From a bacterium (lineage in GTDB: Bacteria > Patescibacteriota > Minisyncoccia > 1-14-0-10-42-19): a stretch of DNA of 64,000 nt. Location of the stretch: the NCBI GenBank assembly GCA_030690215.1, contig JAUYHD010000004.1, positions 31,090 to 95,089 of the forward strand, read 5' to 3'. The position numbers were made by a program, and so were the translations under genes. The notes beneath the pieces are model-generated. The model was not told where the DNA came from, ran no database searches, and saw only the letters and a list, made by a program, of their open reading frames with translations. Positions 1 through 59,455 of the stretch are shown one piece after another; within the stretch, counting starts at the first letter, position 1, and each line of letters opens with the position of its first letter.

Positions 1-3000
1 ATTTGGCGCATAATCACTTCAACGTGCTTTTCGTTAATAGATGCCCCTTGAAGAGTGTAAATCTTGCTTATTTCATTCAAAATATATCTTTGCGCCGTTG
101 TCTTGCCCGCAAGATTAAACAATTCGCGAATATCAATTGGCCCGTCCGAAATCGCACTACCCGGTATTACTTCGCTCCCCTTCTCTACAACTAAAAGGCG
201 CCCGAACGGAACAATAAATTCCCGCGTTTCTTCTTTTTTCTCGCCTTCAGCTTTCCCTTTTGCCGATTTCCCTTTTTCTTCGCTATTAATAAGCACGTTT
301 ACTTTTTTATCGCGGCCATCGCTTACAATATCCATAACAGTCCCCGAAACATCAGAAATAATCGCAGGATTGCGGGGGGTACGGATTTCAAAGATTTCTT
401 CTACGCGCGGGAGACCTAGCGTGATATCTCCTGCCGCAACAATGCCTCCGGTATGAAACGTACGCATAGTAAGCTGGGTCCCCGGTTCCCCAATTGCTTG
501 CGCGGCAACAATACCTACCGCCTGTCCAATCTTCACCGGAACGTTTGTCCCCAAATCATGCCCATAGCACATACTGCATAGGCCCCGGAGCGCCTTGCAA
601 GAAATCGGCGAACGAAGAAAAACTTCGGTAACGTCAGCGTTATCCCCAATATCATCGGCATCATCAGAAGAAATGATATGGCCTTTTTTGAAAAGAACTT
701 TTTCATTTTTATCTTTAAGATCTTGCGCGAGCACCCTCCCAAAAATACGCTGCGAAAAATGCTTCCCATATTCTTCCGTTTCTCCGCGGCGAGCCGAAAA
801 ACCCTTATCATCCCCACAATCTTCTCCTCGAACAATGATGTCCTGTGCGACATCAACCAAGCGGCGCGTTAAATACCCCGCAGCTGCAGTCTTAAGAGCT
901 GTGTCAGCGGTTCCCTTTCGTGCGCCATGAGTAGAAATGAAATACTCAAGCACAGTAAGCCCCTCCTTGTAATTTGAGGTGATAGGAAATTCAATAATGC
1001 GTCCTGCGGGATTGCGAACAAGACCTCGCATACCGGTCATCTGAGCCACCTGCGCCCAATTACCACGCGCAGCGGAAGACACCATGCTATGCACAGAACC
1101 AAATTCGTTTAATGCGGAAGGAACATATTCATCAACTTTCTGTTTCGCGCCCGTCCATATTTCAATAACTCTGCGGTACCGTTCTTCTTCGGTAAGAAGC
1201 CCTTCGGTATACGCATCGCTAATTTTTTTTGCTTCTTCCTCGGCTTCGCGCACAATTTCCCTTTTTTCTCCCGGAGACAAAAAATCATCCATACCCATAC
1301 TCATACCTGAACGCGTAGCATATTCAAATCCGAATGTTTTAATTTTATCAAGAATCGGGGCCGATGCATCAGTACCGTAACGCTCAATAATACGAGAAAC
1401 GATTTTTGTGACGTCTTTTCGTCCCAACTCCTTATTTATATATTCAAAATCAGATGGAAGCGTACTGTTAAACAAAAGCCGTCCGACGCTTGTTTCAAGA
1501 ATTTTCCCCGGTATCTTCTGGTATTCGCGGTATTTTTCGGTGTCGGTAACACGTACGTTAACTTTCGCCTGAAAATCAACCGCGCCCATATCATAAGCAA
1601 GAATCGCTTCATTTGGAGTAGCAAATATACTTCCTTCGCCGGGTGCTCCCTGACGCAATTTAGTAAGCCAATAACAGCCCAACACCATGTCTTGGCGCGG
1701 AGTTGTGATAGGAGATCCTGTACCGGGCTTTGTGAGATTGCGAACAGATGCCAAGATTTCGCGCGCTTCGCGCTGGGCGTCTTCTGTCAGCGGCACGTGG
1801 ACCGCCATTTGGTCGCCATCAAAGTCCGCATTGAACGCCTCGCATACGAGCGGATGCACCTGAATCGCATTCCCTTCAACCATAATGGGTTGGAATGCTT
1901 GAATACCAAGACGATGCAGGGTTGGCGCGCGGTTCAATAAGACATATTTTCCCTTGATTACTTTTTCAAGCGCTGCCCATACATCAGACGTTGCCTCGTC
2001 AATCAAACGATTCGCTCCGCGGATATTATGCGCAAAACCCTCTTCAATCAGATAAGAAATTACAAACGGACGAAATAGTTCCAATGTCATGTGTTTCGGC
2101 AATCCGCACTGATGAAGCTTCAACTCCGGGCCCACCACGATAACCGAACGGCCCGAATAATCAACGCGCTTCCCCAAAAGATTCTGGCGGAATCTCCCCT
2201 GCTTTCCTTTTAAGATATCAGCAAGAGATTTAAGCGGACGCTTTTGCGCCTGTGATACGGCGGCTTGCTGGCCCGATCTACGAATTGAATTATCAATCAG
2301 GGCATCAACTGCCTCTTGGAGCATCCGTTTTTCGTTCCGAACAATTACTTCAGGCGCGTGCAAATCAAGCAATCGCTTAAGACGATTATTTCGATTAATG
2401 ACGCGGCGATACAAATCATTTACGTCAGATGTGGCATTCCTCCCCCCATCAAGCTGGACCATTGGGCGCAAATCAGGAGGAATCACCGGAAGCATACTTA
2501 GAAACATCCATTCAGGGCGCGTATGCGACCGAATAAGCGCTTTTATAAGGCTTAATCGCTTAAGCGATTTTCGCTGCGCCTGCGCTGATACGCTTTCTAC
2601 TTCTTCTTCAAGCATATCGCGGAGAACATCCAAATCAATATGAGAACAAATATCATGAAGCGCCTCAGCCCCAATGCCTGCCTGGAACACATCGCCGTAC
2701 CGCAAACTTAAATGATGAAATTCCGCTTCAGAAAGAACATGGCGTTCCTGGATGCTCGCGAGCTCCCCTCGCGCGCTGTCCAATGCTTCTTTTAATGCGC
2801 TCTGTTCTTTTTTAGTCGTTGCCTGTTTTGATTTCATTTTAAATTCCCGCTCAAGTTCGGCAGCAACTTCTGCTCGTTTTTCTTCGTTGACACGCGTAAT
2901 AATGTAACTTGCGAAATAAATAACACGCTCAAGATCAGATACCGAAAGATCAAGCAACAAGCCTATGCGGGAAGGAACCCCGCGCACAAACCAAATATGC

Positions 3001-3308
3001 GTTACCGGAACGGCAAGCTGAATGTGCCCCATCCGCTCCCGGCGGACAACAGCCCGCGTCACCTCAACACCGCATTTGTCACAAATAATCCCCTTATAAC
3101 GAATACGACGGTATTTGCCGCAATAACATTCGTAATCCTTTTCCGGACCGAAAATACGCTCATCAAAAAGGCCGTCCTTTTCGGGACGCTGCGTACGATA
3201 ATTTATAGTCTCGGGTTTTGTTACTTCTCCATATGACCATGACTTAATCCGATCGGGAGAAGCGATCCGAAGAATAATAGAATTAAAATCTGTTACTTTT
3301 GTTTCCAT
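1..3308 (-). CDS. rpoC: DNA-directed RNA polymerase subunit beta' (RpoC). Partial: the C-terminus runs off the window start.
   Basis: Reverse translation from the ATG at 3306-3308 gives [29 protein letters not shown]..., the zinc finger [23 protein letters not shown], and the catalytic NADFDGDQM motif. The frame stays open to position 1. It is missing from the supplied ORF track only because no stop codon lies inside the window. Confidence 0.92.
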
Positions 3309-3446
3309 GCCAAATTATAAAAAATTTATGAATAACAATGAAATAAATTTTGTCTTAATTTGCGCCCATTCAACTACTCGCTCGCGCTCGCAGGAATGGG
3401 CGGGGGTTTGGCGTTTGCTCGTGCCGTGCACTCGCAAGCCAATTCC

Positions 3447-10250: not shown

Positions 10251-10299
10251 GACGCAAATCGCAATCCCGTATTAAAATTTAAAAAATAAGTACTTAAGA

Positions 10300-10402
10300 C
10301 CGGCGACTACCTACTCTCCCCTTGCGAGTACCATCGGCACTACCGCGTTTTACTTCTTTGTTCGGAATGGAAAAAGGTAGTTCCACGGCGTTAAGTCACC
10401 GG
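10300..10402 (-). rRNA. rrf: 5S ribosomal RNA (short form)
   Basis: The reverse complement aligns along its length with E. coli 5S (…CTACTCTCGC…TACCATCGGCGCTACGGCGTTTCACTTC…GTTCGG…). The terminal helix is ccggtgac/gtcgccgg. It lies just downstream of the 23S gene. Confidence 0.75.
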
Positions 10403-10865
10403 ACTTAAATCCTTATTTATTTTTTTAAATTTTAATTGCGGGAGGAACGGGTGGTGCTCCGCCTTCATTAAAACTCCGGCGAGACAAGCACGACGACAAG
10501 CCACCAGATTACAGCACACGACTACACAACAACAGGTATTTACCCCGCCTTAATTTTGCTCTTTATTACTTCATTTCTTTATTAAAAAGAAAGAGCGTTA
10601 TATTGCCGGCAATGCGCTTCGTCCATACGGGGTGTGCTATCCGCACACGCGCATTGCAAAACAATACAAAGCAAAATTAAAGCGGGGTCTCAATTCCGCC
10701 ATGCCATTCTCTATTTCCTAAAGGAACGGCGGAATTGGATAACCATCACATATTTCAGCGGGATTGACCACTTAGTACAGCTCGGCTTAACTCCTCACAG
10801 AGCGTACACCTGCTGCCTATCAACCTCGTCATCTCCGAGGGGTCTTAATGATTCCTAATCTTGAG

Positions 10866-10903
<38 letters not shown>

Positions 10904-10992
10904 TCCCGACATAGCTACCCAGCGATGCTCTTGGCAGAACAGCTGGTACACCAGAGGTCAGTTCTCTTCGGTCCTCTCGTCACATTCTCCCC

Positions 10993-11805
10993 TATTTCTA
11001 GGAGTGCAGACTATATCTTCACCTTTCTTTAATAAAAAGTTAAGGTGTTGGCGTATTACAAACATAAGCCTGTTTCTTTTGAAAGAAACTTTCCGGCATT
11101 ATGAAAGTCCGCTCCGACATAAAGTCAGAGACAAGTCGTTACGGGGTCAGACCTAAAATTTTATGCAATTCGCTTCTTGTTTTTTTCTTTTTGGTAACGT
11201 AATTTTGACTTTGAATAACCAAAATCAGATCAACAAGTTTTGTCAATTGCCTTTTCGTTAGCTTTTGGAACTTTGTGTTGGATAACACTTCACACGCTTG
11301 TAAGAGCGCGCGTGTTTGAGGTTTTTTAAAACGAATATACGGCAACAAACTTTTAAGAATATTTCTTATCTGTTTATAACCATTTATTCGCAGCTCAGTC
11401 ATTCCATCATTTCTGTCAGAAATATAACCGATACCCAAGACTTCTTTTATCCAATATAAAGTCTTTTTATGCCTAGCATCTTGATAAAAACAAATTGTAG
11501 TCATAAAACGAATCCCTCGTTTGCTATCGCTTCGCTTTTTGAGCTGAAGCATAAGACTCCCATCTCCATCAAGAAAACCAGCAATATACGCGAACTTAAT
11601 TTTAGATCGACTTCCCACGATATTATCTTACTCTATTTCTGGTCCTCAAGCGAATAGTAATATCAAAGACCGTATGATATTACTTTTCATCGAACCGAGA
11701 AACATGAATGAAGATTCCACCGTTATTAGCCACTTTTTCATCACACATTTCTGCGTGAAGTAGCAAGGCCCCAAAAGGGCTTACTAGAAGAAACTCCTCT
11801 CAAGA
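10993..11805 (-). mobile_element. Putative group I intron in the 23S domain V/VI region carrying a LAGLIDADG homing endonuclease gene
   Basis: About 810 bp replace roughly 35 nt of conserved sequence between the exon blocks '...ggtcctctcgtcac' and 'gcagtagataggagaccaacctgtctcacg'. Confidence 0.65.
11139..11618 (-). CDS. LAGLIDADG homing endonuclease (single-motif, I-CreI-like size)
   Basis: A 159-aa ORF with the motif YIAGFLDGDGSLMLQ, lying inside the 23S insertion. Confidence 0.85.
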   Translation of the reverse strand: MGSRSKIKFAYIAGFLDGDGSLMLQLKKRSDSKRGIRFMTTICFYQDARHKKTLYWIKEVLGIGYISDRNDGMTELRINGYKQIRNILKSLLPYIRFKKPQTRALLQACEVLSNTKFQKLTKRQLTKLVDLILVIQSQNYVTKKKKTRSELHKILGLTP

Positions 11806-11835
11806 ATCAACGCCTGCAGTAGATAGGAGACCAAC

Positions 11836-12208
11836 CTGTCTCACGCATGTTTTGCTTCGTAAACCCGCTGGCCTGCGCAGAATATACGCAGAATCACGCA
11901 GACACGAAACATTCCCGCTATTACTAGCGGCATTGGACTATATCTTCATCCCACTTGTGCTGGGAGGCTAACATGTAGTCTCTACAGGGTCATAAGAAAA
12001 TATAAATGAATTTTTCTTAGACTTCCCTCGGTATTGTCCTTATGAAAGGATTTTACCGATATAAGTTAGCTTCTCGCTCAAAAATTACTCTTTGAGGCCG
12101 CCGTGATTGAGGTTGTTTCCTATCTTTATTTCATAGACGAAAAATATGTCGTTGGATTCAAACAGTCGATGAGCCAATCAGTAGTTCAAGATCGTAATGC
12201 GCGATTAG
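11836..12208 (-). mobile_element. Putative ORF-less intron in 23S between ...CTGTCTCACG and ACGGTCTGAACCCAGCTCGCG
   Basis: A 375-bp insertion splits the contiguous conserved sequence GAGACAGTTCGG.../...ACGTTCTAAACCCAGCTCGCG, which is uninterrupted in E. coli. Confidence 0.55.
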
Positions 12209-12241
12209 CGCATCAACGGTCTGAACCCAGCTCGCGTGCCA

Positions 12242-12320
<79 letters not shown>

Positions 12321-12917
12321 GCTTCGTCGATATGGACTCTTGGAAGCGACCAGCCTGTTATCCCCGGAGTAGCTTTTATCCGTTAATCTTCCGCGGCGTC
12401 TAGTGCCCACGGTCGGTTCACTATGTTCTGCTTTCGCATCTCTTTTTATACATGAAAGCATAAAAAGTTCCGAAATATTCGGAAGTTTGACATGTCCGTC
12501 TTACAGTTAAGCCAGCTTATGCCATTGCGCTATCGGCGCGATTTCCATCCGCACCTAGCTGACCTTGATAAACACCTCCGTTACTTTTTAGGAGGTAAGC
12601 GCCCCACTTAAACTGCCCACCAGATACTGTTCCCGTGCGTTTTTGCCGCAAAGGTTAGAGTCTAAAAATGAAAAGATGGGTATTTCACTGTTGGCTCCAT
12701 GCCGCCCAAGAGCAACACTTCAAAGCCTCCCCACTATGCTACGCATTACATTCTTAGAGCCAATATCAAGTTGCAGTAAAGCTTCCGGGGTCTTTTCGTC
12801 TAACTGCAGGTAACCGGCATCTTCACCGGTATTGTATTTTCACCGGGCTACTCCCCGAGACAGTCCCCCAGTCGTTACGCCTTTCGTGCACGTCGGAACT
12901 TACCCGACAAGGAAATA

Positions 12918-12953
<36 letters not shown>

Positions 12954-14299
12954 GACGAGGGCTTCGGTCGGTCAGCATCCCGCTAAAAGCGGGACACCAC
13001 CAACGTTAACCTTCTCGCATTGGTCAGGCGTCACCCTCTATACATCCTCTTACGAGTTCGCAGAGAGCTGTGTTTTTGTTAAACAGTCGCCAGGGGTACT
13101 TTCGCTGCGTCCCGCTTTCCACACGATAAAAACCGTATGGTTAACGGGAAACTCTTATTGCTAACTTACGAGTGCTTTTTTGCCGAGTTCCTTGGGGAGC
13201 ACTCACCCGTTCGCCTTAGTCTTCTCGACCTGCTCACCTGTGTCGGTTTGCGGTACGGTTTCCATATACTTAACCCTAGAAGTTTTTCTTGGAAGGCTCT
13301 TCAAAAGAATTTTCTTCCGAAACGAAAGAATTTCTGCATTGCGCGAGATTTGCCTTGCGGCCGCTTTCCGGATTTGCCGGGAAAGCATCTCTGTACAACA
13401 CAAACGCGAATCCAATAACGCGCTCTTTTTTATGTCCTCCGTCCCTCCATTGGAAATATACGGAAGTCACGGAATATTAACCGTGTGTCCATCAACTGCG
13501 CCTTTCGGCATCGCCTTAGGACCGACTCACCCTTGGCTGATCACCATTGCCAAGGAAACCTTGAGCTTTCGGCGTGCAGGGCTCTCACCTGCATTGCGGT
13601 TACTTGTGCCAACATTCTCGCTTCCCAACGCTCCACCACTTCTCACGAAGCAGCTTCACTGCATTAGGAATGTTCTCCTACCGCGTTATGCAAAAGCATA
13701 ACACCCTCACCTTCGGTACTCTGCTTGAGTCCCGATTATTTTCGGCGCAATATCTCTTGACGAGTGAGCTGTTACGCACTCTTTAAAGGATGGCTGCTTC
13801 TAAGCCAACCTCCTCGCTGTCTGAGAAATTTCACCACCTTGAAAACACTTAGCAGAGATTTAGGGACCTTAGATTGAGATCAGGGCTGTTTCCCTTTTGA
13901 CCGATGGAGCTTCGCCCCCATAGTCTAACTGCCCTTACAATACGTTCGGTATTCGGAGTTTGGTTGGAAAGCCGAGCTTTCGCCCTATGCATCCCATCCA
14001 GTAGCTCTACCCCCGAACGATAATAAAGACGCTAACCCAAAAGTTATTTCGGAGAAAACCAGCTATTCCCACGTTCGATTAGCTTTTCACTCCGACCCAC
14101 AGCTCATCCGATGACGTTGTACGATCAACCGGTTCGGACCTCCTTCCGCCTTTCGGCGAAATTCATCCTGGCCATGGGTAGCTCACGTGGCTTCGGGTCT
14201 TTTGCATGTTGCCTTTATTCTTCGCCAATTCACTCGCGTTAAAACGAGTGAATTGGAAAGAATGATGCGCGCTGTTAACACTCGGTTTCCCTTTGCCTC

Positions 14300-14860
14300 C
14301 CCCCGCTCTTTTGGCACTATTCCAGTAAACTATTTTGAATACGCTTCTTAAGATGCCCGATTACCGCTCCGTGATGTTTTAGTTTTTCTTCACGAAGCAA
14401 TGCATCTTTTTTACTAAGATACGATTCGTAATAAATAAGTTTGAATGGAGCGTAATGTTTTGTTGATCTATTTTCTCCTTGATTGTGTTCTTTCAATCTT
14501 CTCCGAAGATCATTCGTACTCCCCACATAGAAAAAATTTTTATTTTTACTTTTAAGAAAATAAACATAATACATAATCAATAATTATACCAACAAAATAA
14601 TAACGCCAAAAGAGCGGGGTTAGACGAGCAGCATGCAAAAACTCGTTGGCTCATTCTTCAATAGGCACCCGGTCACTCGTACCTCGCTCTCGCTCGGCAC
14701 TTCGTAATTTTCAATTTTTAATTTCTAATTTTTAAACATTTGAAAATTGGAACATTAAACATTGAATAAAAATTGAGAATTGAAAATTAAAAATTTTGTG
14801 CTGAACAAAAGTGAGGCACAAGCTCCCAGTCCTTGTAAGTATATGGTTTCAGGTACTATT
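14300..14860 (-). mobile_element. Intron-like insertion in the 23S 5' half carrying a GIY-YIG endonuclease gene plus an AT-rich low-complexity tail
   Basis: 23S-conserved sequence resumes on both sides (about 14290 and about 14870, CTCACGGTACTAGTTCACTATCGGTC). The insert contains the ORF 14317..14580 and 'aattgaaaatt' repeats. Confidence 0.5.
14317..14580 (-). CDS. GIY-YIG nuclease (catalytic domain only, 87 aa)
   Basis: Motifs YYVYFLKS...FYVGSTNDLRRRLKEHN, matching the GIY/YIG/Arg/Glu pattern. Confidence 0.85.
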   Translation of the reverse strand: MIMYYVYFLKSKNKNFFYVGSTNDLRRRLKEHNQGENRSTKHYAPFKLIYYESYLSKKDALLREEKLKHHGAVIGHLKKRIQNSLLE

Positions 14861-14880
14861 TCATCGCCCTCATCGGGCTG

Positions 14881-14920
<40 letters not shown>

Positions 14921-15299
14921 TTGAAGCGTATTTAGCCTTGGGAGCTAGTGCTCCCGGCTTCCCCCGAGGCATTCGTTCCTCGAGGTACTCAAGAGTACAT
15001 TCCGAGAGACAGAGATGATTTTCGTGTACGGGGCTATTACCCTCTTTGGCCCGCCTTTCCAGACGAGTTCTACTAACCAAATCTCTTCTTGTAAATCTCT
15101 CCTGAGAGTAAACTCTCAATGAATGTATCTTTCAACCCCCCTCGACTCGATGCTACGCACCTCGCTCGGGGTAAACCCATCTTTTAAAAAACGAAGATTG
15201 GGCTTGCCCTGAGTGAGATTCGCAGAATCGAATCGAAGGGTTTGGGCTCTTCCCGTTTCGCTCGCCGCTACTAAGGGAATGGACCACATCTCGCTTCGC

Positions 15300-15670
15300 T
15301 CGAGTGGAATTCCCAATTTTCAAGCACCAATTTCAAAACAAATCCCAATGACCAAAATCCAAAACAAGGGTTTTTGAAAATTGAAACATTAAAAATTGAT
15401 TGCCCGCCCAAAGGGCGAGGTCTCGCCTAAGGCGGAAAAATTAGAAATTAAAAATTGGAAATTCCGCGCCGAACAAAGTGAGAAGCAGCATTGTTTTCTT
15501 TTCCTCTAGGTACTGAGATGTTTCACTTCCCTAGGTGCGCTCCGCGCTCTGCACGGAAACCCAAATTTCCAAGCACCAACCCCCAAACAATGCAAAAATT
15601 CAAATGACCAAAACGGATTTGGAATTTGAAATTTAGAATTTGTTTGGAATTTGGATTTTGTAATTTAGGA
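15300..15670 (-). repeat. Two related AT-rich expansion inserts in the 23S 5' domain ('cc(a/c)aatttccaagcaccaa...caaatgaccaaaa' copies at about 15318 and about 15558, plus 'aattgaaa/aatttgga' low-complexity runs)
   Basis: Direct repeat and low-complexity sequence lying between conserved 23S blocks. Confidence 0.5.
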
Positions 15671-16106
15671 TTTCCGTGCAAAGCACGGTCTCCGTGGTTT
15701 ACACGGAGGGGTTTCCCCATTCGGACATCTCCGGATCAAAGGTTGCTAGTCACCTCCCCGAAGCTTATCGCAGACACGCCACGTCCTTCATCGCCACTTC
15801 AAGCCAAGGCATCCGCCATATACTCTTATTCCCGCTGAAATATACAATGATTATAAATGCTATAATCACCTGTTGTTTATATTCTATTGTAAATTTGCTC
15901 ACCTTTACTGCCGGCATCTGTTTAATAAAAAAATGATAAACAGGTGTCGGGAGTAAAAATATTGTGTACCCTCCTCCGCACTTCTCCGCTAAAGCTCCGA
16001 AGTGCTTCGGGCGGGTTATTTTTCGCAACTACGCTTCGCGTAGGCAAAAAATGAATAATCGCGCCGCAAGCAGTGCGATATCTCACGCTATGCTTGCAGC
16101 TTTGCG

Positions 16107-16311
16107 ATTATTCCACCCAGCTCATAAATCTTAACCGGGGTCTTTTTGTAATATGATTCCATTTTTTTAACATTAATGAAATCAGGAAAGACATAAGATC
16201 TATGAGCTGGGTTTATTATCTGCAAACCGCATTCATTCCCACCGCCCGCTTCGCCGAAGCGAAAGCGAGACGAGCAAGCGACGGGGTATTCTGCGGGCAG
16301 ATAATAAAAAA
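16107..16311. repeat. Repeat family D, copy 1: hairpin element 'ttattccacccagctcat...atgagctgggtttattatctgcaaaccgc...gcgggcagataataa'
   Basis: A second copy is at 59260..59417, with compensatory changes in stem 1. Confidence 0.5.
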
Positions 16312-16695
16312 TCCGCTTCTTTTGAGCGGAGTTCATACAACCAAATACAGGCGTGATTACAAACTAGGACTCGTCGCCCCCGCTTTCTAAAAATGATATG
16401 TTGATAGTGTGTAACATCGTATTGTTTTCCTAGTATAGCAGGTCTGTTTTGGCTGTCAAACCCCGTTTGGCTAAATCGAAAGCTGTATCTACGTCTGACG
16501 GATACTATATCTGGTTAAGGAAACAATGGTCCGTTATGTGAGTCGTCGAAATTCGCTGGTAGATACAACAAGGAAGACGGTTCGATTTTGCCTAACGGGG
16601 TCAAATCTTTCAACTAAATCCAAAACAAGCCCGACTACCCACCATTGCACATGGGGCTTTCCGACAGGAAAACCCCATAGAACAATAGCGATTAG

Positions 16696-23060: not shown

Positions 23061-23822
23061 TTATTTTTTTCCTCCGGAAACGCCTGCCTGTCCGGTAGGC
23101 AGGAATCCGCCTTTTGCGGAAAAGATCCTCGGGCATATTTCTCTCACATAACACCATTCGCATTCCGGTCGAGGGAACGCATGAACGCCCCTATTGTATT
23201 CAACCATTGTGTAATTTATCCATATCCAATCTTTTTTTGAAAATAACTTCATCAAGTCTCGTTCTATTTTATTGGGGTCGTTTTCTTTTGTAAAGCCAAA
23301 GCGTTGCGATACCTGGCGCACGTGCGTATCCACCGCAATGCCCTCGGCACGATGATAGACATGATTGAGCACAATATTCGCGGTTTTACGCGCAACGCCG
23401 GGGAGGCGCGTCAACTCTTCAATCGTCTTTGGCAATTTCCCATGAAAATCTTTTTCCAGCATTCGCGCAGACCCGATAATATTTTTCGCCTTTTGGCGGA
23501 AAAATCCGAGCGAATGTATCTCTTTTTGGAATATGGATAGATCGGCAGAAGCAAAATCATGCACCGTTTTGTATTTTGTAAATAATCCCCTCTCCTGCGT
23601 CACCTCATTTACCTTTTTATCCGTTGCCTGCGCTGAAAGCATTGTAGCTGCAAGCATCTGCATGGGTGTCTTGTACATCAAAACACTCCTTGTTCGCGGA
23701 TATGCTTTATGCAAACAAAAAAGCAGGGCCCTTGCCCTTTTTTTGCGCACTTCAAACGAGTCGTTTGCCCATTCTTGAAAAGAATGGGCGGCATGAATAT
23801 TTTTTTTCAACATAATACTCAC
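23061..23822 (-). CDS. nth: Endonuclease III (HhH-GPD DNA glycosylase)
   Basis: Helix-hairpin-helix LTRLPGVARKTANIVL, catalytic-region VDTHVRQV, and a C-terminal Cys cluster CEWCYVREIC. Confidence 0.82.
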   Translation of the reverse strand: MSIMLKKNIHAAHSFQEWANDSFEVRKKRARALLFCLHKAYPRTRSVLMYKTPMQMLAATMLSAQATDKKVNEVTQERGLFTKYKTVHDFASADLSIFQKEIHSLGFFRQKAKNIIGSARMLEKDFHGKLPKTIEELTRLPGVARKTANIVLNHVYHRAEGIAVDTHVRQVSQRFGFTKENDPNKIERDLMKLFSKKDWIWINYTMVEYNRGVHAFPRPECEWCYVREICPRIFSAKGGFLPTGQAGVSGGKK

Positions 23823-23954
23823 AGCTTTTCCCCCGTTAGGCTACATCGAAACATCGTACTTGTTTTATCAAAAACAATATTCCGATTATTGCCTTCACAT
23901 GTATGTTAACGATAATCCTTTATACTACCCCGTACGATGAAGATATAAAACATT

Positions 23955-23994
23955 CGATGTTGCCATACGGGGCATACCCCGTATGGCAACATCG
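23955..23994. repeat. Near-perfect 18-bp-arm palindrome 'cgatgttgccatacgggg cata ccccgtatggcaacatcg'. It is the core of dispersed repeat family B.
   Basis: Seen directly. Related copies are at 24100, 24460, 24765, 25775-26095, 41395-41475 and 41595, with short variants elsewhere. Confidence 0.8.
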
Positions 23995-24074
23995 AAAAAC
24001 GTCTTCCTTGCTGCATCTACTCGCATAATCTTAGAATTATACACAAAAAACCAATATTTCTTTGCTAATTTGTA

Positions 24075-24353
24075 TTATTCCGTAAGACGTAAAGGTTTTG
24101 CTTTCGATGTTGCCATACGGGGTTCCACAAGAAAGTCGGGTATTTCTATTATCTTATTGGGCTTGCGTACACCCCTGCGAAGGCGAATCTTTGAGGGTGA
24201 AATATTAAAATAAACTGCAAGCGCGTCTAGTACCGCTCTGTTTGCTTTGCCCCCTTCCGCTTTTTCTTTTACATACACATCAAAAGAATCATTTTTCTTT
24301 TGAATAATCGCGTCTTTCGGCGACCGGGTATGGGCTTTCACTTTTACAAGCAT
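24075..24353 (-). CDS. DUF167 (YggU) family protein
   Basis: MLVKVKAHTRSPKD...FDVYVKEKAEGGKANRAVLDALAVYFNISPSKIRL matches the YggU pattern. The C-terminus probably reads into a repeat copy. Confidence 0.55.
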   Translation of the reverse strand: MLVKVKAHTRSPKDAIIQKKNDSFDVYVKEKAEGGKANRAVLDALAVYFNISPSKIRLRRGVRKPNKIIEIPDFLVEPRMATSKAKPLRLTE

Positions 24354-24475
24354 ACCTAACCAAAAAATCGACTGCTCGCAAAAAGCACGATAAGCCCGAC
24401 AATGATGACCAGAGCAAATCTGCTAATATATGACCACAATGAACCTTTATTGTTACCTTGGGGAGGCATACCCCG

Positions 24476-24772
24476 TTAGGCTAAATCAAATGAAGAAGAC
24501 CAATACTCCCGCAGGCGATTCCTCAAAAATCTGCGTCCTGCAGTAGATTTGAGATAACGCTCACGCTGCATGGCGTCTTCTTGATTTGTACAAGCCTCAA
24601 GATAAATGATAATAAATGGTAGTCTCATTTTTGTTGAAAAGTTATACCCCCGTTTGTGCTCTTCTAATCGTTTTTTAATATTCTTTGTATATCCTACATA
24701 CATATTGCCGTCCTTTTTGCTCCGCAATACGTATGTCCAGAAGAGCACATTTGATTTTGCCATACGGGGCAT
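24476..24772 (-). CDS. GIY-YIG nuclease (catalytic domain only)
   Basis: WTYVLRSKKDGNMYVGYTKNIKKRLEEHKRG. Family-B repeat copies flank it on both sides. Confidence 0.8.
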   Translation of the reverse strand: MPRMAKSNVLFWTYVLRSKKDGNMYVGYTKNIKKRLEEHKRGYNFSTKMRLPFIIIYLEACTNQEDAMQRERYLKSTAGRRFLRNRLREYWSSSFDLA

Positions 24773-24805
24773 ATATCTATTATACTACGCGAACTCTTTT
24801 TATAT

Positions 24806-24830
24806 AAAAAATCCCGCTTTAAGCGGGGTT
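24806..24830. terminator. Bidirectional terminator hairpin 'cccgctttaagcgggg' with T-runs on both sides
   Basis: Seen directly between the GIY-YIG gene and the TPR gene. Confidence 0.55.
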
Positions 24831-24832
24831 TT

Positions 24833-25501
24833 TTATATGGCATCAAGCATTGACTGCAGAACCGCTGAAATCGTAGGGTGGTTCGTTATTGCTCCTTGCA
24901 ATAATTCACGCGCGCTTGCTTTATCTCCCAAAATATCTACATACAGCTCAACTGCCGCTGCGTAATATTGGGGATTTGTCGGCGCTTTCTCTATTGCCTT
25001 GAGTATATACTCCTCCCCTTTTTGGTTGTCGTGGAAGTGATATATATATAAATTGGAAAGATTATTGAATACACGAGCATCATCCGGCTGAATAAACGCA
25101 ACATAGCTCCAAATCTCCTCTGCTCCCTTGTAGTCTTCAATTAGTTTGCGGTACGTTCCTAGTTCCAACCAATGATCTACGAGCGCAGAATCGCTTTTTA
25201 GAGTGTCTATCAATTCCGCTATTTTTTGCTTTGCCTGCGTTGCAGATTCAGAATTCATCCCCTCGGGGATAACAACCGGCCGATCAAGATCAGGAATTGG
25301 AACCGAATCTATGCTATTTGAGACATCGGCGGGCACGACAACGGCATCTATGCCGTTGTCTTTGTTTTCGTTTTTACCATCTTCTGTAGAAGAGGGGCTG
25401 TTGGCATTGTATAGGAACATAACACCCCCAAACAGAAAAAGAACCAAAAAACCAATAATGTATATTTTGTATTTTTGCATACCCTTGTTAAAAATTTCCA
25501 A
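24833..25501 (-). CDS. Membrane-anchored TPR-repeat protein
   Basis: An N-terminal TM helix. The C-terminal half carries TPR-like repeats (…AEEIWSYVAFIQPDDARVFNNLSNLYIY…EEYILKAIEKAPTNPQYYAAAVELY…). Confidence 0.55.
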   Translation of the reverse strand: MEIFNKGMQKYKIYIIGFLVLFLFGGVMFLYNANSPSSTEDGKNENKDNGIDAVVVPADVSNSIDSVPIPDLDRPVVIPEGMNSESATQAKQKIAELIDTLKSDSALVDHWLELGTYRKLIEDYKGAEEIWSYVAFIQPDDARVFNNLSNLYIYHFHDNQKGEEYILKAIEKAPTNPQYYAAAVELYVDILGDKASARELLQGAITNHPTISAVLQSMLDAI

Positions 25502-25774
25502 TTTTAAATTTCCAATTTTTATTCAATGACATAATTCCAAAATTTTTAAATAGTGTAAGAAATTGAATCATTAAACATTGATTATTCTTCGATTTTGCTC
25601 AGAATCTTAAAATCTTGAGCTTGCCGAAAGAAAAATTCAAAATTAAGAATTAAAAATTAAACACTACTGATACTATTTCGTATTATCCCGAAATACATAA
25701 AGATTTTGCTTTTCTGCCGGAGGCAGATCTGCTCGCCTCGTTTTCGCCTTGGCGAAGCGGGCCTTCGGCATGAC

Positions 25775-26095
25775 GATGTTGCCATACGGGGCATACCCCG
25801 TTAGGCTACATCGAAAAACGTCTTCCTCGCAAAACCGCCGAATATATTTCGATGTTTACCTTTTATTGTACTTTTACTAATAATACTTTGTGTTATTCCC
25901 GTAAGACGCAAAGGTTTTGCTTTCGATGTTGCCATACGGGGCATACCCCGTTAGGCTACATCGAAAAACGTCTTCCTCGCAAAACCGCCGAATATATTTC
26001 GATGTTTACCTTTTATTGTACTTTTACTAATAATACTTTGTGTTATTCCCGTAAGACGTAAAGGTTTTGCTTTCGATGTTGCCATACGGGGCATA
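25775..26095. repeat. Tandem array: a 150-bp unit present 2.1 times (one mismatch between units). Each unit contains a family-B palindromic core.
   Basis: Unit starts are at 25775, 25925 and 26075. The repeated translation (FTFYCTFTNNTLCYSRKT x2) is visible in the ORF track. Confidence 0.85.
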
Positions 26096-26277
26096 TCTAC
26101 AATTTGTATCACAGGTTCTTTTTTATTTCAACCCCGACCTTGAGAATCCTTAATGCTCTCAGAGAACTGCACTATAAGGATTCTCAAGAGCGGGGCAATG
26201 CAAAAGCCCCGTGTTTCCACGGGGCTTTTGGAGCCGTCTCTTCGCTCACGAGGAGCAAAGGACCACAAGAGGCTCTA

Positions 26278-29200
26278 TTAGTTAGAAGACGTCAATGTCT
26301 CAAAGGACATGTTCGTCGTCGGCAAACCGGGTACAAGATAACCGTTCGTAAAGTCAAGATCGGTAAGCGCAATTGACGTTGTCGTAGAATTCGGTGACCA
26401 GATAAGGTCATCATTCGTGTCAGTGTCAATAAATGTCGCGCTTGCCATAGCGATCTTGTCTGTTGCGTTTATGTTTTCATCCGGGTGAGGGGTAGCGGTT
26501 GGATATGCCGCATCTCCCATCAATCGTACTTCAAACGATTCTTCGCCAGAGCTTGTCTCAACGCCATACACGTCTGCTGCAAAGCGGAACCATCGTGTTT
26601 CCCCTGAAGGAATCTTGTACGTGGTTGTCGCTGTGCCACAGGTTGTCTTGTTGAAGTTTACGTTAATGTCAGTGTTGTCAAGACCAATCACGCTTACGTT
26701 ATCCGTTGCCTCAACTGCTGCTGTCTTGTCGGAAGACTTAAACATACCCCCAAAGAGAAGAATAGCATCAGTTGGGTACGCGCAATTCTCGGCATTCAAC
26801 AGACCTGTCGTTGAAAACGACGTGTCGGGTGAGGCAAAACTGGAGTCAGTAAATGCGTACACCGAATATCCAGATGTTGACGCATTTGCAAGGTTCCCGG
26901 TTGAAGATGACAGCTGGAATGTAAACTTGTACAACTGTACGTCGTTACCAACCGCCGTTACCTTGAATTTGTAGATTGTTCGGTCAGAACCAGTCTGCAT
27001 AGTTCGTTCTGAAGTTGACAAGTCAATCTTTGCAAATGACGGGTACGACTTCATGATACGAACACCGGTAATGGTTGTGTCGCTGCCTGTTGGCGAGATG
27101 TTTGATCCTGATCCCACGCCAACACCATAGTTTCCTCCGCTCAAACCAAGCGCACCGGCATCCCACTGCACTTGGAGAAAGTCACCGGATGCTACGAGCG
27201 GACCTGACACAGTAATGCCACCAATATCACCTTTAACAGTCATAGTCTTTGAGCTGTCTTTCGGCACTCGGAATGCGCCTGAAGCAATTACTGAAGATGT
27301 CGCGAAATCTCCGTTTGCTCCGAATGTCGCATCCGCTAGCCATGTTGAGCCATCGTACAAGCTGACTTTTTGGCCTATCAAATCAATCGGTGAGTTCGTT
27401 GCAACAGCAGAAAGCTCGAAGTTTACGCGGCGAATGTCAATGTCTTCAAACGATGCCGAAAACTTAAGTTTCGCAAGCGTTACGCCTGTTGTTCCTGACT
27501 GAACAATGCTGTATCCCGGCGTTGAATCATCAGTAACGGTATATGTCCCGCCTGTTTGAACAGTCATTGTTTGGCCGACGACACCTGTCCCATCGCCTGA
27601 ACCATTTTCAGTAACAGTTGCTGACTGCCCTGAAGTCACTCCAGTCGGCGTAGGAGATGAAGCAGTGCTGTATCCCCATCGGAATCCTGTGTTCGCAGCT
27701 GCACCGGTTGAAATATTACACTTTAATCCTATCGTCTTTACTGTCCCTTTCGGAACAATCAAACCGCTGCCCAAGAACGTAAATGACGTTGAAGATCCAA
27801 CCGCGCTTGGGTCTACTCCATCAGACACGATTGTCGCGCCGTCATAGAGCTTACATGCAGTCAAGTTAGTTGCTGTTCCTCCCACCGGTGTTCCATATTC
27901 AAGCGGAAGTGAAGCAAACCGAATGTCGTCCCCAGAATTTGTAGCGTCAAGTTCATAATTCGCGAAAAGAAAATCACTTGTGCCTGCTACAACATTCTGC
28001 GCGAGCGGTACGCTTGAAACGCTGATTGTTACTGCCGCCGCTTTAAGCGTCATTGTGTTTCCGCTGATTGCCGATGATGGAGACGGTGTAATAGATACTG
28101 ATGTCGTCTGTCCGGTTACTGTCGTCCACTGGGTGCTTGGGGTTGTGGATGCGTGTACCGTGTCATTGTTGTCAAAGTCACTTCCATATTTACCCTTCAA
28201 TGTGTACGTTTTCTTCCCAACAGGGAATATGATTGTTTCGGTGAAAGTAACCGTACCATACGAACCGCTTACCACTACTCCGTCTGCGGGACCTGCCAAC
28301 ACTACGCCGTCATCGCGAACAAGCGAAATGTTTGTAAGGTCTGCAGGATCACCTGTTCCGGTAGTTCCAAGACCAAAGATGATCTGCGCTACCGATATTT
28401 CTTCACCCTTTATTTCTACGTTGAACCCACCAATTGCCTGGTCAGGAACGTTTTCTGCAACGTTTTGTGACTGAACAGCTGATGAATTTTCTACCGTAAG
28501 AGTTCCGGTATCAATAGTAACTTGGTAGCCATCAAACCATGGGTTTGTATCCTCATGGAACGCGCCATCGTCAGTGCCTGAAGCGTCAGTGCCATTTGGA
28601 GGCGAGATATTGTATCCGAATGTCTTTCCGTAGAACGTTACGTCTGTCCTGCGGAAGATATCAAAGTCAATCGTCCTGCTTGATCCGTCTACAATATCGC
28701 CTTTCACAGAAACTTCCGTTGAAAATCCTTTTGCAATAGAAACGCCTGCTCCAAACGACGCGCTGTAGTATTTGCCGTCATCAGAAACCTTCGCGTCATA
28801 CGCTGTGCCGTCTACTACAATTTTTACGTTCGCCAAGTCTGATGAAGCCGCCGAACCTGACTGGTTAAAGCGGATGTTCTTCAAAAGAAGATCTTCTGCC
28901 GAACCTGCGGTAAATTTAACCGATGTGAATGTGTATGCTGTTTCACCTACCTTCTTGTTTACGCTTGAACCCGGGTCCAATGGACCAATCGCGTTCGTAA
29001 CGCTACCAATAGTGAGTGAATTGTTTGCGGTGTGGATTGCTCCCTTAATAGGAAGTGACCCCTCTAATGTTGCAGTACCCTTCAACGCAATTGCGGTTAC
29101 CGCCAAAATAGGCGCTTCTCCTACATTTGCTGAAAGACTCGCAGCCATGTCACCTCCAACGGTGACTGTCTTTGTTGTTCCTGCCTTAATTGTGAAGTCT

Positions 29201-29961
29201 TCGGTAAGGGTTGCCTGGTGAAGCGAGTTCAATGATTTGGAAAGCCCGATTCGGGTTCCATCGCTATCAATCAAGACAACACCTGAAAATGCGGAGTCTG
29301 CACCCAATCCCTGTCGTTCAACAGTGACTGAATCAACGATTACATCGCTTGCTCCCGCGCTTAATGTAATAACCGTGAATGGAACTCCTTGTGCGTTCTT
29401 TACCGCCAAAGAATCTGCCGGCTGGGTGCCCGCGGCAACCAATAAGCTACCAGCTGATACCGGCGTAGTTGGTGTGGTTGGCGTAGTTGGTGTCCCAAAC
29501 AATGCATTTAATTTAGCTCGCGTTCCCGCTCCTACAAATCCTGTAGGCGCGCTAAGTCCCAATGGAGTCAACACTTCAGAAGCATATTTGTTCTGGAAGC
29601 AGTTGGCCGCATCACGCGTGATAGGACCAAAGTATCCTGTGTAAGATCCGAAAGTGAAGCATCCTTCCAAGTCCAGCGCTTGCTGGAGGGCTTTTACTTC
29701 ATCGCTGGTCATTCCCATTGAAAGGTTCGTATTGAACACATGGGAAAATCCCGATGAGCCTCCCGACAAACCTGAAAGCTGTGTTTGCAATGTTGCAATC
29801 TGCGCTAACAGTGCTTGGATTTGTGCTTGAAGGTCAGCAACTGTTTGCGCTTGAGCTGCTACCGGAATCAAATATCCGATACCCCCAAGCCACAAAGCAG
29901 TTGTTACACTGAGAACGGTGGAAGCAATTTTTGCTTTCATCGTCCCTTTAAAGCTACTCAT
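26278..29961 (-). CDS. Giant secreted cell-surface protein with a PG_binding_1 (peptidoglycan-binding) domain and a long Thr/Ser/Gly-rich beta-rich region
   Basis: A 1227-aa ORF. It has a signal peptide/TM at the N-terminus, a coiled QAQIQALLAQIATLQTQL segment, the PG-binding-like motif MTSDEVKALQQALDLEGCF...YFGPITRDA, and a TPTTPTTPTTP linker. Confidence 0.75.
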   Translation of the reverse strand: MSSFKGTMKAKIASTVLSVTTALWLGGIGYLIPVAAQAQTVADLQAQIQALLAQIATLQTQLSGLSGGSSGFSHVFNTNLSMGMTSDEVKALQQALDLEGCFTFGSYTGYFGPITRDAANCFQNKYASEVLTPLGLSAPTGFVGAGTRAKLNALFGTPTTPTTPTTPVSAGSLLVAAGTQPADSLAVKNAQGVPFTVITLSAGASDVIVDSVTVERQGLGADSAFSGVVLIDSDGTRIGLSKSLNSLHQATLTEDFTIKAGTTKTVTVGGDMAASLSANVGEAPILAVTAIALKGTATLEGSLPIKGAIHTANNSLTIGSVTNAIGPLDPGSSVNKKVGETAYTFTSVKFTAGSAEDLLLKNIRFNQSGSAASSDLANVKIVVDGTAYDAKVSDDGKYYSASFGAGVSIAKGFSTEVSVKGDIVDGSSRTIDFDIFRRTDVTFYGKTFGYNISPPNGTDASGTDDGAFHEDTNPWFDGYQVTIDTGTLTVENSSAVQSQNVAENVPDQAIGGFNVEIKGEEISVAQIIFGLGTTGTGDPADLTNISLVRDDGVVLAGPADGVVVSGSYGTVTFTETIIFPVGKKTYTLKGKYGSDFDNNDTVHASTTPSTQWTTVTGQTTSVSITPSPSSAISGNTMTLKAAAVTISVSSVPLAQNVVAGTSDFLFANYELDATNSGDDIRFASLPLEYGTPVGGTATNLTACKLYDGATIVSDGVDPSAVGSSTSFTFLGSGLIVPKGTVKTIGLKCNISTGAAANTGFRWGYSTASSPTPTGVTSGQSATVTENGSGDGTGVVGQTMTVQTGGTYTVTDDSTPGYSIVQSGTTGVTLAKLKFSASFEDIDIRRVNFELSAVATNSPIDLIGQKVSLYDGSTWLADATFGANGDFATSSVIASGAFRVPKDSSKTMTVKGDIGGITVSGPLVASGDFLQVQWDAGALGLSGGNYGVGVGSGSNISPTGSDTTITGVRIMKSYPSFAKIDLSTSERTMQTGSDRTIYKFKVTAVGNDVQLYKFTFQLSSSTGNLANASTSGYSVYAFTDSSFASPDTSFSTTGLLNAENCAYPTDAILLFGGMFKSSDKTAAVEATDNVSVIGLDNTDINVNFNKTTCGTATTTYKIPSGETRWFRFAADVYGVETSSGEESFEVRLMGDAAYPTATPHPDENINATDKIAMASATFIDTDTNDDLIWSPNSTTTSIALTDLDFTNGYLVPGLPTTNMSFETLTSSN

Positions 29962-30919
29962 ATGTGATAATGAATGGCTCTTTTTTTCTCCCGCTCTTTA
30001 CCCACCTTTCATCGTAGATAACATATATTCTATCGGAATACCGATACATACGATGCTATCTATACGCAAAGACAAACAAAGAGCGGGATTCAAAAAGAGT
30101 TTTGAGAAAGATAGACATGGTTCCGACAAATTGACCACATAATAACTTTCTCTGATGTTCAAAAATTAATAATTCTCAAATTTTAAATCTGCGTACTGCG
30201 AGGAGCAAAGCCATTAAGAAAAATTCTCATCGACCTGGCCTACCGGCATACATAATATGTATATATTGCATACGCCAAGTAACTCCTCCTTTTTCTTTAG
30301 ACATAACAATTAACCGAAACAGAACTATTTCACACAATCATCCGTACTGCCGTTTATATAAAACTGTTAATGTCCTTCCCTAGATTCTTTGAAGGGAAAT
30401 TTACTTTCCCTTTCCTATGCGTCGCGCCAAACGCGATGAACAGGGTAAGGAAAAATAATCGTACTACTTTCTAATTTCTAACCTCTAAACAAATCCTATG
30501 TCGTATCTTATATCTTCTTTTTTCATAAAAAAATTCTTGTGTTAATTGTAAAAAATAATTCGTACATACAGATACAGGAAACCAGCCAGTAAAATGGCCT
30601 TGATAAAAAATTTTTACACTCTATCTACATACATACACACGTGCACTCTTCACTTCGGTCATTCTCCCTTATATTCATTATAATTAGAGCAAAAAATGCT
30701 TGCAAAATGGTTCTGTGGATAACTTAAATGCGCATTTTTCGTCCTATCCAAATCTTGCTATAATCCTTGTTTCTCCAGTAAAAATCGTTATTTCTCGCTT
30801 CCTTAAATCATAAAGCAAGAAAGAATACTCGGTCAACAAATAAGCGCCCCAGAACAACAATAATATAATCTGTCAACTGCGAGCCTGTCAGAAAAAGGAC
30901 CATAAAGTATATAATTCTT

Positions 30920-31876: not shown

Positions 31877-32012
31877 TTTTGCCCCGCACCAGAAAGCCCC
31901 GAACGCAAGCTTGAGAGATGACCAGTATAAAACGCGCTTTCGGTGTGGGGTTTCGCGCAACAAAAGATCGAAAGAACTGATGCTACGAGCGTAAGCTTGA
32001 GGAGCGCTTCAC
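31877..32012. repeat. Repeat family C, copy 1 (a structured element of about 135 bp: ccccgcaccagaaagc...gctttcggtgtgggg plus internal cgNaagcttgag direct repeats)
   Basis: A second copy is at 44599..44889, interrupted by an insertion of about 160 bp. Confidence 0.5.
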
Positions 32013-41198: not shown

Positions 41199-41204
41199 AC
41201 CCCG

Positions 41205-41620
41205 TTAAAAATTTCCAATTTTAAATTTCAAATTTTTCCGCCAGAGGCGGATCTGCCTCAGGCAGATAATCAATGCTGTAATAAATTAATTCCTAAAAAA
41301 TAAGGTCGTTTTATTCATTAAAAAATTAAAAATTGAATAAAAATTAAAAATTAATAATTAAAAATTAAACACTACTGATACTATTTCGTATTACCCCGTA
41401 AGACGTAAAGGTTTTGCTTTTCCGCCGAAGACGGATCTGCCTCAGGCACGACTAACGGGGCATACCCCGTTAGGCACTATCGCATGGTAAGCCATGCGTT
41501 CGCCGTTTATTATTCGTATCATAGGATTCGTTTTTCATTTATATATATATGGGGTGTATACCAATGACTTACAAGAACGCATTATGCGAGAGTGCCATAC
41601 GGGGCATATCCAAATATACT
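41205..41620. repeat. Cluster of dispersed-repeat copies (two family-A hairpins 'ccgccagaggcggatctgcctcaggca', family-B 'cccgtaagacgtaaaggttttgcttt...ccatacgggg', and AT-rich 'aattaaaaatt' runs)
   Basis: The sequence is identical to segments at 6955-6998, 25560-25830 and 24078-24125. Confidence 0.7.
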
Positions 41621-41677
41621 ATCAAAAAAAGAACAGCCCGTAGAGGGCTGTTCTTATATGTAAAAATATCCGCGTAA

Positions 41678-41899: not shown

Positions 41900-42007
41900 G
41901 CAAATCTTTCAATTAAAACCTGACGACCTTTGCAATCGTATATAATCTATCCCTCTAGTATACCAGGCGTGTACACACCCGAGCTACATTGCTGTGAACA
42001 TGGCTCA

Positions 42008-43924: not shown

Positions 43925-44113
43925 AAATATGTTTATCAAATACCTCGCGCGCTCGCGGGGTTTTATTTTTTATACGCATATACAAAAGACTGAGGTCGTG
44001 TATAATCATAATTAATGGCGTAACTTGGTGAGATGTGCGGGTGCGTCCCAAAGCCCCCATCCTCATAAAAGTTTGCTAGGGTCATACATTATTAATCAAC
44101 ACATACAATCAAA

Positions 44114-59175: not shown

Positions 59176-59259
59176 ATACAGGCATTGTACCCTTGTTATG
59201 TAAAAATAAATAACCGCACTACTTGCAGTGCGGTATCTGCGCTGGTTGCAGTCTTGCGG

Positions 59260-59417
59260 TTATTCCACCCAGCACATAACTCAAATATAGAGACTCACAC
59301 TGAAATCTTGTGCGTATGTTCCATGGTTATCAAAGCAATAAGGTAATATCCTAAAAGTTATGTGCTGGGTTTATTATCTGCAAACCGCGCAGTAGTGCGG
59401 GCAGATAATAATAAAAA
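59260..59417. repeat. Repeat family D, copy 2 ('ttattccacccagcacataac...gttatgtgctgggtttattatctgcaaaccgc...gcgggcagataataa')
   Basis: Matches 16107..16311. Stem 1 is maintained by compensatory substitutions. Confidence 0.5.
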
Positions 59418-59455
59418 GGCCGCTTTTGTTTCCAAAAAAACGGCCTTTCGTATAT

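Follow-up and report, generated by a model that had tools for sequence, protein, structure and literature searches.

A probable non-coding mobile DNA element composed of three hairpins behind transcription terminators in a genome of the Patescibacteria

The window, i.e. the whole stretch of DNA that was analysed (64,000 nt), originates from an uncultured bacterium that homologues place in the Parcubacteria (CPR), close to Candidatus Niyogibacteria; it is part of an NCBI MAG with the locus tags Q8O83_00325/00330. Genomes of CPR/Patescibacteria are small and gene-dense, and despite this genome type the window holds several structured intergenic repeat families and unusually long spacers. The element studied here is present twice in the window. 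Copy 1 is located 214 nt upstream of the 5' end of the 23S rRNA gene (15839), which is the next gene, and copy 2 is located 46 nt downstream of the stop codon of a phosphorylase gene and is followed by a gene for a 164-aa membrane protein. All genes flanking the two copies are encoded on the minus strand. These positions are in agreement with the earlier note, which had assigned both copies to intergenic DNA, one next to the 23S 5' end and the other next to the end of the phosphorylase gene. The same note had described a two-hairpin element at 16107-16311 and 59260-59417. The features quoted there are present, but a third hairpin had been missed: homology starts 54 nt (copy 1) and 52 nt (copy 2) to the left of these bounds, the added hairpin A has a compensatory pair of its own, and the element has the bounds listed in Table 1.

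Table 1. Positions in the window of the two copies of the element, of their hairpins and of the adjoining host features
Feature	Position	Strand	Remarks
Copy 1 of the element	16053..16305	(-), relative to flanking genes	253 bp; bounds from the empty sites in L015 and L014
Copy 1, hairpin A	16054..16112		outer stem AATAATCGC/GCGATTATT; interior partly conserved
Copy 1, hairpin 1	16116..16211		base CCCAGCTCATA/TATGAGCTGGG; interior of 74 nt, imperfectly palindromic
Copy 1, hairpin 2	16215..16305		ATTATCTGC-AAA-CCGC ... GCGG-GCAGATAAT; loop of 62 nt
Copy 1, segment within the loop of hairpin 2	16244..16276		other GC-rich small hairpin repeat of the genome; resembles 25730-25762 on the opposite strand
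Host intrinsic-terminator hairpin before copy 1	16312..16330	(-)	terminator scan; conserved in the element-free loci L014 and L015
Right half of the target, directly after copy 1	16046..16052	(-)	ATTTTTT; equivalent of the second T-run, ATTTTT, in the empty site
Copy 2 of the element	59208..59409	(-)	202 bp, or 205 bp if the extra AAT at 59410-59412 is included; empty site in L007
Copy 2, hairpin A	59209..59264		AATAACCGC/GCGGTTATT; C-G where copy 1 has a T-A pair
Copy 2, hairpin 1	59268..59369		CCCAGCACATAACT/AGTTATGTGCTGGG; 74-nt interior mostly unrelated to that of copy 1
Copy 2, hairpin 2	59373..59409		short loop of 8 nt, GCAGTAGT
Phosphorylase host terminator, directly before copy 2	59414..59449	(-)	terminator scan; kept in L007, L008 and L009, which lack the element

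Several further features were observed around copy 1. On the minus strand at 16306-16459 a promoter (TTGACA-16-TGcTATACT) is followed by a highly conserved structured RNA of ~120 nt that ends in a terminator hairpin, and the same arrangement was found in the related loci L014 (10934-11089) and L015 (2572-2728). This RNA, located upstream of the 23S gene in three genomes, had no Rfam match and may represent either the leader of the rRNA, including an attenuator, or an sRNA that lacks annotation. Between copy 1 and the 23S proximal region lies a ~100-nt module of small GC-rich hairpins (15960-16045), which is present in the window and in L015 but not in L014; it has ATTTTT on both sides in L015 (on its own strand) and is a second indel in the same T-rich tract as copy 1. 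Within 10298-15839, the 23S match spans 3712 nt compared with a model of 2925 nt, which implies insertions, and a group I intron match (11914-12119) and a LAGLIDADG endonuclease ORF (11139-11618) are found between the 23S match and the 5S gene. There is no 16S gene in the window, and the rRNA genes are therefore unlinked.

Other repeats and long spacers are distributed over the window. At least seven copies of ACGGGGCATACCCCGTTAGGCTACATCG, together with larger 150-nt tandem units, occupy unusually long intergenic regions (23821-26111, 41455-41624 and 16451-16478); one ACGGGGCATACCCCGTTAGGCTACATCG copy lies directly beside the -35 box of the promoter upstream of the 23S gene, and the break of the Logan contig L006 coincides with one copy. 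A free-standing 98-aa GIY-YIG nuclease ORF (24476-24772, minus strand) is embedded in the repeat-rich region. Two ORFs of 1227 and 1020 aa (26278-29961 on the minus and 34157-37219 on the plus strand) had no Pfam match, and the second of them contains internal repeats of ~250 nt. An 89-nt intergenic sequence occurs twice with 79% identity (31910-31998 and 44786-44874) and may be another structured element. Stretches of 0.8-2 kb without any ORF of at least 90 aa, which are unusual for a small CPR genome, were found at 1381-3446, 43925-45387, 29962-30919 and 41199-42007.

Read on the plus strand, the element consists of hairpin A, the linker CCA, hairpin 1 (CCCAGC...GCTGGG), the linker TTT and hairpin 2. 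Pairwise alignment of copies 1 and 2 gave AATAAYCGC...GCGRTTATT as the consensus stem of hairpin A. In hairpin 1, CCCAGCTCAT (16116-16125) pairs with ATGAGCTGGG (16202-16211) in copy 1, and CCCAGCACATAAC (59268-59280) pairs with GTTATGTGCTGGG (59357-59369) in copy 2. In hairpin 2 both copies carry TTATTATCTGCAAACCGC...GCGGGCAGATAATAA around a variable loop, as had been noted before, the loop being 62 nt long in copy 1 and 8 nt in copy 2. The identical blocks shared by the two copies are 16-25 nt long; the 25-mer GCTGGGTTTATTATCTGCAAACCGC and the 20-mer TTGCGRTTATTCCACCCAGC each occur twice in the window, compared with 0.00 and 0.03 expected occurrences. Compared with shuffled controls, folding z-scores of the two copies ranged from -6.9 to -9.3 on either strand. 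The similarity of the repeat segment inside the long loop of copy 1 to its counterpart at 25730-25762 amounts to 88% over 33 nt (blastn), with 19-mer matches at 0 and 2 mismatches where 0 were expected.

The third copy, which comes from other metagenome assemblies, was reached by way of a plus-strand frame through hairpin A that is open in copies 1 and 2. A profile of the two peptides, compared with 1.84 billion representative proteins, gave one match, the spurious 58-aa protein P0242 (E = 4.7e-5). Copy 3 (L017:3014-3179) is 166 bp long and neighbours a DUF192 gene and a class II ribonucleotide reductase gene, both of which run opposite to the plus orientation of the element, as in the window. 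Its locus is also contained in L018 and L019 from other ENA assemblies, which are 98.7% identical to L017 overall and identical within the element. With this copy included, element length varies between about 165 and 255 bp, and the longest block common with copy 3 is 13 nt. Hairpin 1 is only 38 nt long in copy 3 compared with 96-102 nt in the other two, and the loop of hairpin 2 has an intermediate length of 37 nt, with ends (ATTCA...GGGGTATTCT) in common with the long loop of copy 1. Copy 3 is composed almost only of three perfect hairpins and reached a folding z-score of -17 as single-stranded DNA. The hairpin tips of the three copies showed no conservation of sequence, length or even fold, and the hairpin 2 loop of copy 1 has taken up part of the GC-rich repeat mentioned above.

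The search for additional copies was extended to several sequence collections. The 82-aa spurious ORF on the minus strand matched only itself in the protein database. Scanning genome_contigs with a 20-mer gave 4 matches, all of them due to chance and with no other element block nearby; 22-mer and 20-mer scans of metagenome_contigs gave 0 matches, and 18-mer and degenerate 16-mer scans of viral_contigs gave 2 and 52 matches, all of which were chance matches according to nhmmer. When the window and all loci of the relatives were searched by nhmmer with 2- and 3-copy profiles, no further copy was detected except a doubtful fragment in L010 (3335-3399). There, ATTATTTGCCTGTGGAATATCCC follows the orthologous phosphorylase terminator and is identical to the beginning of the element in 20 out of 28 positions; the phosphorylase is 64% identical, and the contig ends 55 nt into the putative fragment. 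Judged by its sequence, it is possibly a diverged and truncated fourth copy, and if real it would imply either that the same target was hit by insertion more than once or that the element was precisely lost several times. The family is thus described here from three copies plus this doubtful fragment.

The ends of the element, written on the minus strand, are 5'-ATTATCTRC... and ...GCGRTTATTY-3', and each of them pairs inside its own hairpin. Terminal inverted repeats were not found in the three copies, the ends of which share only a loose ATWATC(N)GC likeness. An overall dyad symmetry exists: the left part of the element (hairpin A and the 5' arm of hairpin 1) and its right part (the 3' arm of hairpin 1 and hairpin 2) show 79% complementarity over 33 nt, and beyond hairpin 1 the symmetry amounts to 79-82% over 28-33 nt, while the predicted fold consists of three separate hairpins. 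A coding function was ruled out by stops in the frames and by ORFs that are not conserved between copies. Promoter cargo was rejected as well, as no -35/-10 pair is conserved among copies 1-3 in either orientation when the three sequences are read by eye. The integron attC consensus is RYYYAAC/GTTRRRY for R''/R', and on reading of the sequence the element does not match it. In the Logan contig L005 the break lies 4 nt within hairpin 1, which fits poorly to the clean inversion breakpoint of an invertible segment. No Rfam family was matched by the copies at gathering score or at E up to 10, and the best sub-threshold matches were unrelated miRNA or sRNA models of about 20 bits.

We then analysed base pairing in the core stems; in the three-copy count a GAAA placeholder stood for each variable interior, and one linker C was removed from copies 1 and 2 to keep the register. 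Comparison of copies 1 and 2 alone showed 33 of 33 core pairs to be Watson-Crick in both, with two double changes: in hairpin A a T-A pair is replaced by C-G, and in hairpin 1 one is replaced by A-T. Since 115 of 500 shuffles were as good, covariation between only two sequences is not distinguishable from chance. The third copy altered this result. All 33 core pairs are Watson-Crick in each copy (99/99 cells), in eight of them both partners have changed (hairpin 1 accounts for five and every other helix for one), and neither one-sided changes nor G-U pairs were found. None of 500 shuffles reached these values, and controls with slid partners dropped to 30-40% paired. Thus, the compensatory changes that the earlier note had reported for stem 1 are real and more extensive than it had claimed, and the non-compensatory changes in further copies that it had named as refuting are absent from the core stems of copy 3. 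As every core pair is Watson-Crick without any G-U, both strands fold equally; for G-U-compatible pairs in the variable parts the strand asymmetry was mixed.

Comparison with related genomes revealed that both sites exist without the element. In L007, where the phosphorylase is 89% identical and the gene order is the same, copy 2 is absent and the terminator is conserved; the phosphorylase gene and the gene for the 164-aa protein are 87 bp apart there and 280 bp apart in the window. On the minus strand the empty site reads GGCCTTTTT^ATTTTGAAT and the occupied one GGCCTTTTT(ATT)[ATTATCTGCC...GCGGTTATTT]ATTTTTAC. The element is also absent from the more distant Niyogibacteria loci L008 and L009, in which the phosphorylase terminator is again conserved. 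Copy 1 is absent at the 23S locus of L015 and L014, relatives with an MS-channel protein of 85% and 89% identity, although their 23S-upstream region matches that of the window almost base for base over the promoter, the ~120-nt leader, the terminator and the 23S 5' end. The empty site of L015 (minus strand) is GCGGATTTTTT^ATTTTTCGCG and the occupied site of the window GCGGATTTTTT[ATTATCTGCC...GCGATTATTC]ATTTTTTGCC, so that in L014 and L015 copy 1 is missing exactly between ATTTTTT and ATTTTT. A small non-coding sequence is therefore polymorphic for presence and absence between related genomes at two independent empty sites. Its absence from intact orthologous sites in close relatives argues for insertion; precise deletion in the relatives, instead of insertion in the window genome, is formally conceivable. 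The empty sites TTTTTT^ATTTTT (L015, L014) and TTTTT^ATTTT (L007) already hold both flanks, and therefore no target duplication took place, or at most an ambiguous one of 3 nt, as the element itself starts with ATT; duplications longer than 3 nt were not found.

The three copies share a short asymmetric target, with 5-6 T ahead of the element and ATTTTT behind it. Terminator hairpins are located 5-11 nt upstream of the element in all three cases, and the orientation relative to this upstream terminator is the same in 3/3 copies. At copy 1, the T-tract of the host terminator (16306-16312 on the plus strand) forms the left half of the target. At the site of copy 3, read on the gene-sense strand, the terminator AAAAAGGGGATTACAACCCCTTTTTT is followed by CGTTATTTTTT^[ATTATCTAC...GCGGTTATTC]ATTTTTCAG. 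Nine places in the window have the exact TTTTTATTTTT sequence (two on the minus strand) but not the element, so the motif alone does not set occupancy.

Altogether, the element is probably a non-autonomous, non-coding and site-specific mobile DNA element, made of three hairpins, hairpin-ended and placed behind terminators. Its presence or absence at otherwise intact sites, the shared target, the fixed orientation, the terminal hairpins and the lack of both terminal inverted repeats and target duplication all point to mobile DNA and not to an RNA gene or a terminator, and so do the strict Watson-Crick pairing on both strands, the free tips and the lack of a shared promoter. Hairpin 2 and hairpin A form the ends of this element, with hairpin 1 between them, and it inserts precisely into the T-run/ATTTTT sequence within ~11 nt downstream of an intrinsic-terminator hairpin. 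The bases of the hairpins and the short linkers (CCA/CA, TTT and the AAA bulge) seem to be what is conserved, whereas the tips appear free to change in both length and sequence. Hairpin feet and linkers are probably recognition structures in the DNA for an enzyme that would act in trans from a gene elsewhere in the genome.

The most likely candidate for this enzyme would be a single-strand-DNA HUH/Y1 transposase of the IS200/IS605 or RAYT kind that reads the folded hairpins. Elements of the IS200/IS605 group have palindromic ends and move as single-stranded DNA (PMC8266576). Like them and their ORF-less derivatives, the element described here has no terminal inverted repeats, causes no target duplication, carries a hairpin at each end and is found, in a sequence- and orientation-specific manner, 3' of a fixed short AT-rich target (3/3 copies). 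Unlike in IS608-type elements, whose subterminal hairpins each have a guide tetranucleotide on their 5' side, the hairpins described here abut the termini, starting 0-1 nt from them without an obvious guide segment in the three copies. The target of ~11 nt (T-run/ATTTTT) also differs from the tetra- or pentanucleotides of the IS200/IS605 group, and the window showed neither a TnpA nor a TnpB gene. More broadly, no transposase, Y1_Tnp or recombinase domain was detected in the 50 window ORFs that were scanned.

A similar picture emerged for the REPIN/REP-RAYT (TnpA-REP) system. Both types of sequence are non-coding, intergenic and hairpin-forming and usually occur at the 3' ends of genes, and both combine a conserved hairpin foot with a variable spacer, compensatory changes, overall dyad symmetry and no coding capacity (PMC3116915, PMC8266576). 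The element is, however, much larger and folds into three separate hairpins instead of one REP doublet. The foot GTAG is not conserved, being found in copy 3 only (GTAGATAAT, GTAGCGCGG), whereas copies 1 and 2 have GCAG at both places. In further contrast to REPINs, the target site is defined and demonstrable from empty sites, and no RAYT is encoded among the 50 window ORFs.

The weightiest alternative to such a single-strand transposase is that the mobile element owes its movement to site-specific recombination between the joined element ends and the target, the enzyme being either of the IS110 type (DEDD, with a bridge RNA) or one of the tyrosine or serine recombinases. We regard this as rather unlikely. 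In its favour, the joined ends (...TTATTY|ATTATCT...) agree with the target TTTTTT|ATTTTT at 8 of 11 positions, and ATT is found at both junctions, as expected of a crossover core. The size of the element is presumably close to that of an IS110 left end plus right end without the ORF. Moreover, IS110-family elements insert beside hairpins (REP sequences) without classical inverted repeats (PMC8450116, PMC12288879). Against this explanation, no recombinase was found among the window ORFs scanned, and the upkeep of perfect hairpins at both ends would be left unexplained. None of the internal loops carries sequence that could pair with both target and ends, copy 2 has lost the one internal loop of any size in hairpin 2, and the copies have no Rfam match. 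A bridge RNA in particular was rejected, as conserved guide-like loops are absent.

According to the earlier note, the preserved stems were the signature of selection on structure, and it asked whether the copies act as transcribed RNAs or terminators. The first point stands insofar as the stems are kept by two-sided changes. A functional RNA or terminator gene is not supported, given the insertion, the empty sites in relatives, the absence of a shared promoter and of any Rfam match, and host terminators that were there beforehand. Compensatory changes are common in the hairpins of REPINs, which are mobile palindromic DNA (PMC3116915), and compensatory base changes in a repeated hairpin are, taken alone, no evidence for a functional RNA. 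A structured non-coding RNA, be it an sRNA gene or a cis-acting leader whose helices are under RNA-structure selection and which has spread or been duplicated to several loci, would be consistent with the very strong folding (z-scores of -7 to -17), with the compensatory pairs, and with conservation at helix bases and junctions combined with variable tips, as seen in many RNAs. It would also fit that in copies 1 and 2 G-U pairs give hairpins 1 and 2 a slightly better fold on the minus (gene-sense) strand, and that copy 1 lies within the probable pre-23S leader downstream of a conserved, near-consensus promoter. Yet the element is dispensable, being absent at intact orthologous sites of close relatives, no promoter is conserved among copies with otherwise unrelated flanks, and each copy is located just past a terminator, where transcription should be low. 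In addition, all 99 cells of the core stems are Watson-Crick and none is G-U, no Rfam family matches, and the downstream genes (23S rRNA, the 164-aa membrane protein and ribonucleotide reductase) are unrelated. Taken together, a structured RNA of either kind is a decidedly unlikely explanation.

That the copies are ordinary host terminators or attenuators, possibly bidirectional and merely alike in sequence, is hardly credible: terminator-like sequences do occur, namely hairpin A with the adjoining TATTTATTTT or TATTCATTTT (copies 2 and 3, minus strand) and hairpin 1 with the adjoining TTTATTATCT (copy 3, plus strand), and every copy lies between co-directional genes, but a canonical terminator is already present directly upstream at each locus and is kept in relatives without the element, three hairpins over 165-255 bp with long identical blocks far exceed the needs of a terminator, and copy 1 was not scored as one.

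Within mobile DNA, comparison with other palindromic repeats showed both common and separating features. BOX/SPRITE, BIME and Correia elements are likewise modular, highly base-paired non-coding repeats enriched downstream of genes, with modules that vary in length and number, elements that insert into one another and some members that are terminator-like (PMC3049150, PMC10969869). In BOX and Correia elements, however, terminal inverted repeats pair with each other, and Correia and RUP elements duplicate their target; the element described here has neither property. It shares no sequence similarity with any of these repeats, and the host phylum is another one. Classical MITEs differ as well, as the element lacks terminal inverted repeats and target-site duplications. 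It probably belongs to a known class, that of palindromic non-autonomous mobile elements, but the variant is new and comes from a phylum for which our literature search found no description of miniature mobile elements (CPR/Patescibacteria).

With regard to the target strategy, the element resembles group IIC introns, which also land in fixed orientation just downstream of the stem-loop and T's of a Rho-independent terminator (PMC1702495, PMC4748821). The resemblance is limited to this strategy: the element is 165-255 nt long, has no ribozyme, no domain V and no GUGYG...AY, and it gave no match to group II Rfam models at E up to 10. Landing behind a terminator may provide a mobile element with a safe harbour in a compact genome, since the upstream gene would keep its terminator. 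The last hairpin of the element together with the remaining ATTTTT would again be terminator-like, and the downstream promoter would stay untouched. In the terminator scan, hairpin A with its T-rich flank scored as terminator-like on the minus strand in copies 2 and 3 but not in copy 1, and on this basis the insertion is probably neutral for the host. The interiors of copies 1 and 2 are very divergent, though both insertions look younger than the split from relatives with 85-89% identity. This points either to several diverged source copies or to a fast turnover of the hairpin tips.

A more far-reaching reading is that these copies represent the first described class of hairpin-ended mobile elements in CPR/Patescibacteria that target the tail of terminators, moved by an enzyme that reads both the hairpins of the element and that of the terminator. 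We consider this possible but doubtful. If true, it would be a class without inverted repeats or target duplications, and the enzyme would be an unrecognised HUH enzyme or another recombinase, possibly RNA- or structure-guided; the class would then constitute a protein-only analogue of the safe-harbour strategy of group IIC introns. The element can serve as a marker for strain typing and for assembly breaks, and it offers an entry point to an enzyme that recognises hairpin DNA beside terminators. Together with its empty sites, it provides a handle on how small, gene-dense genomes tolerate selfish DNA.
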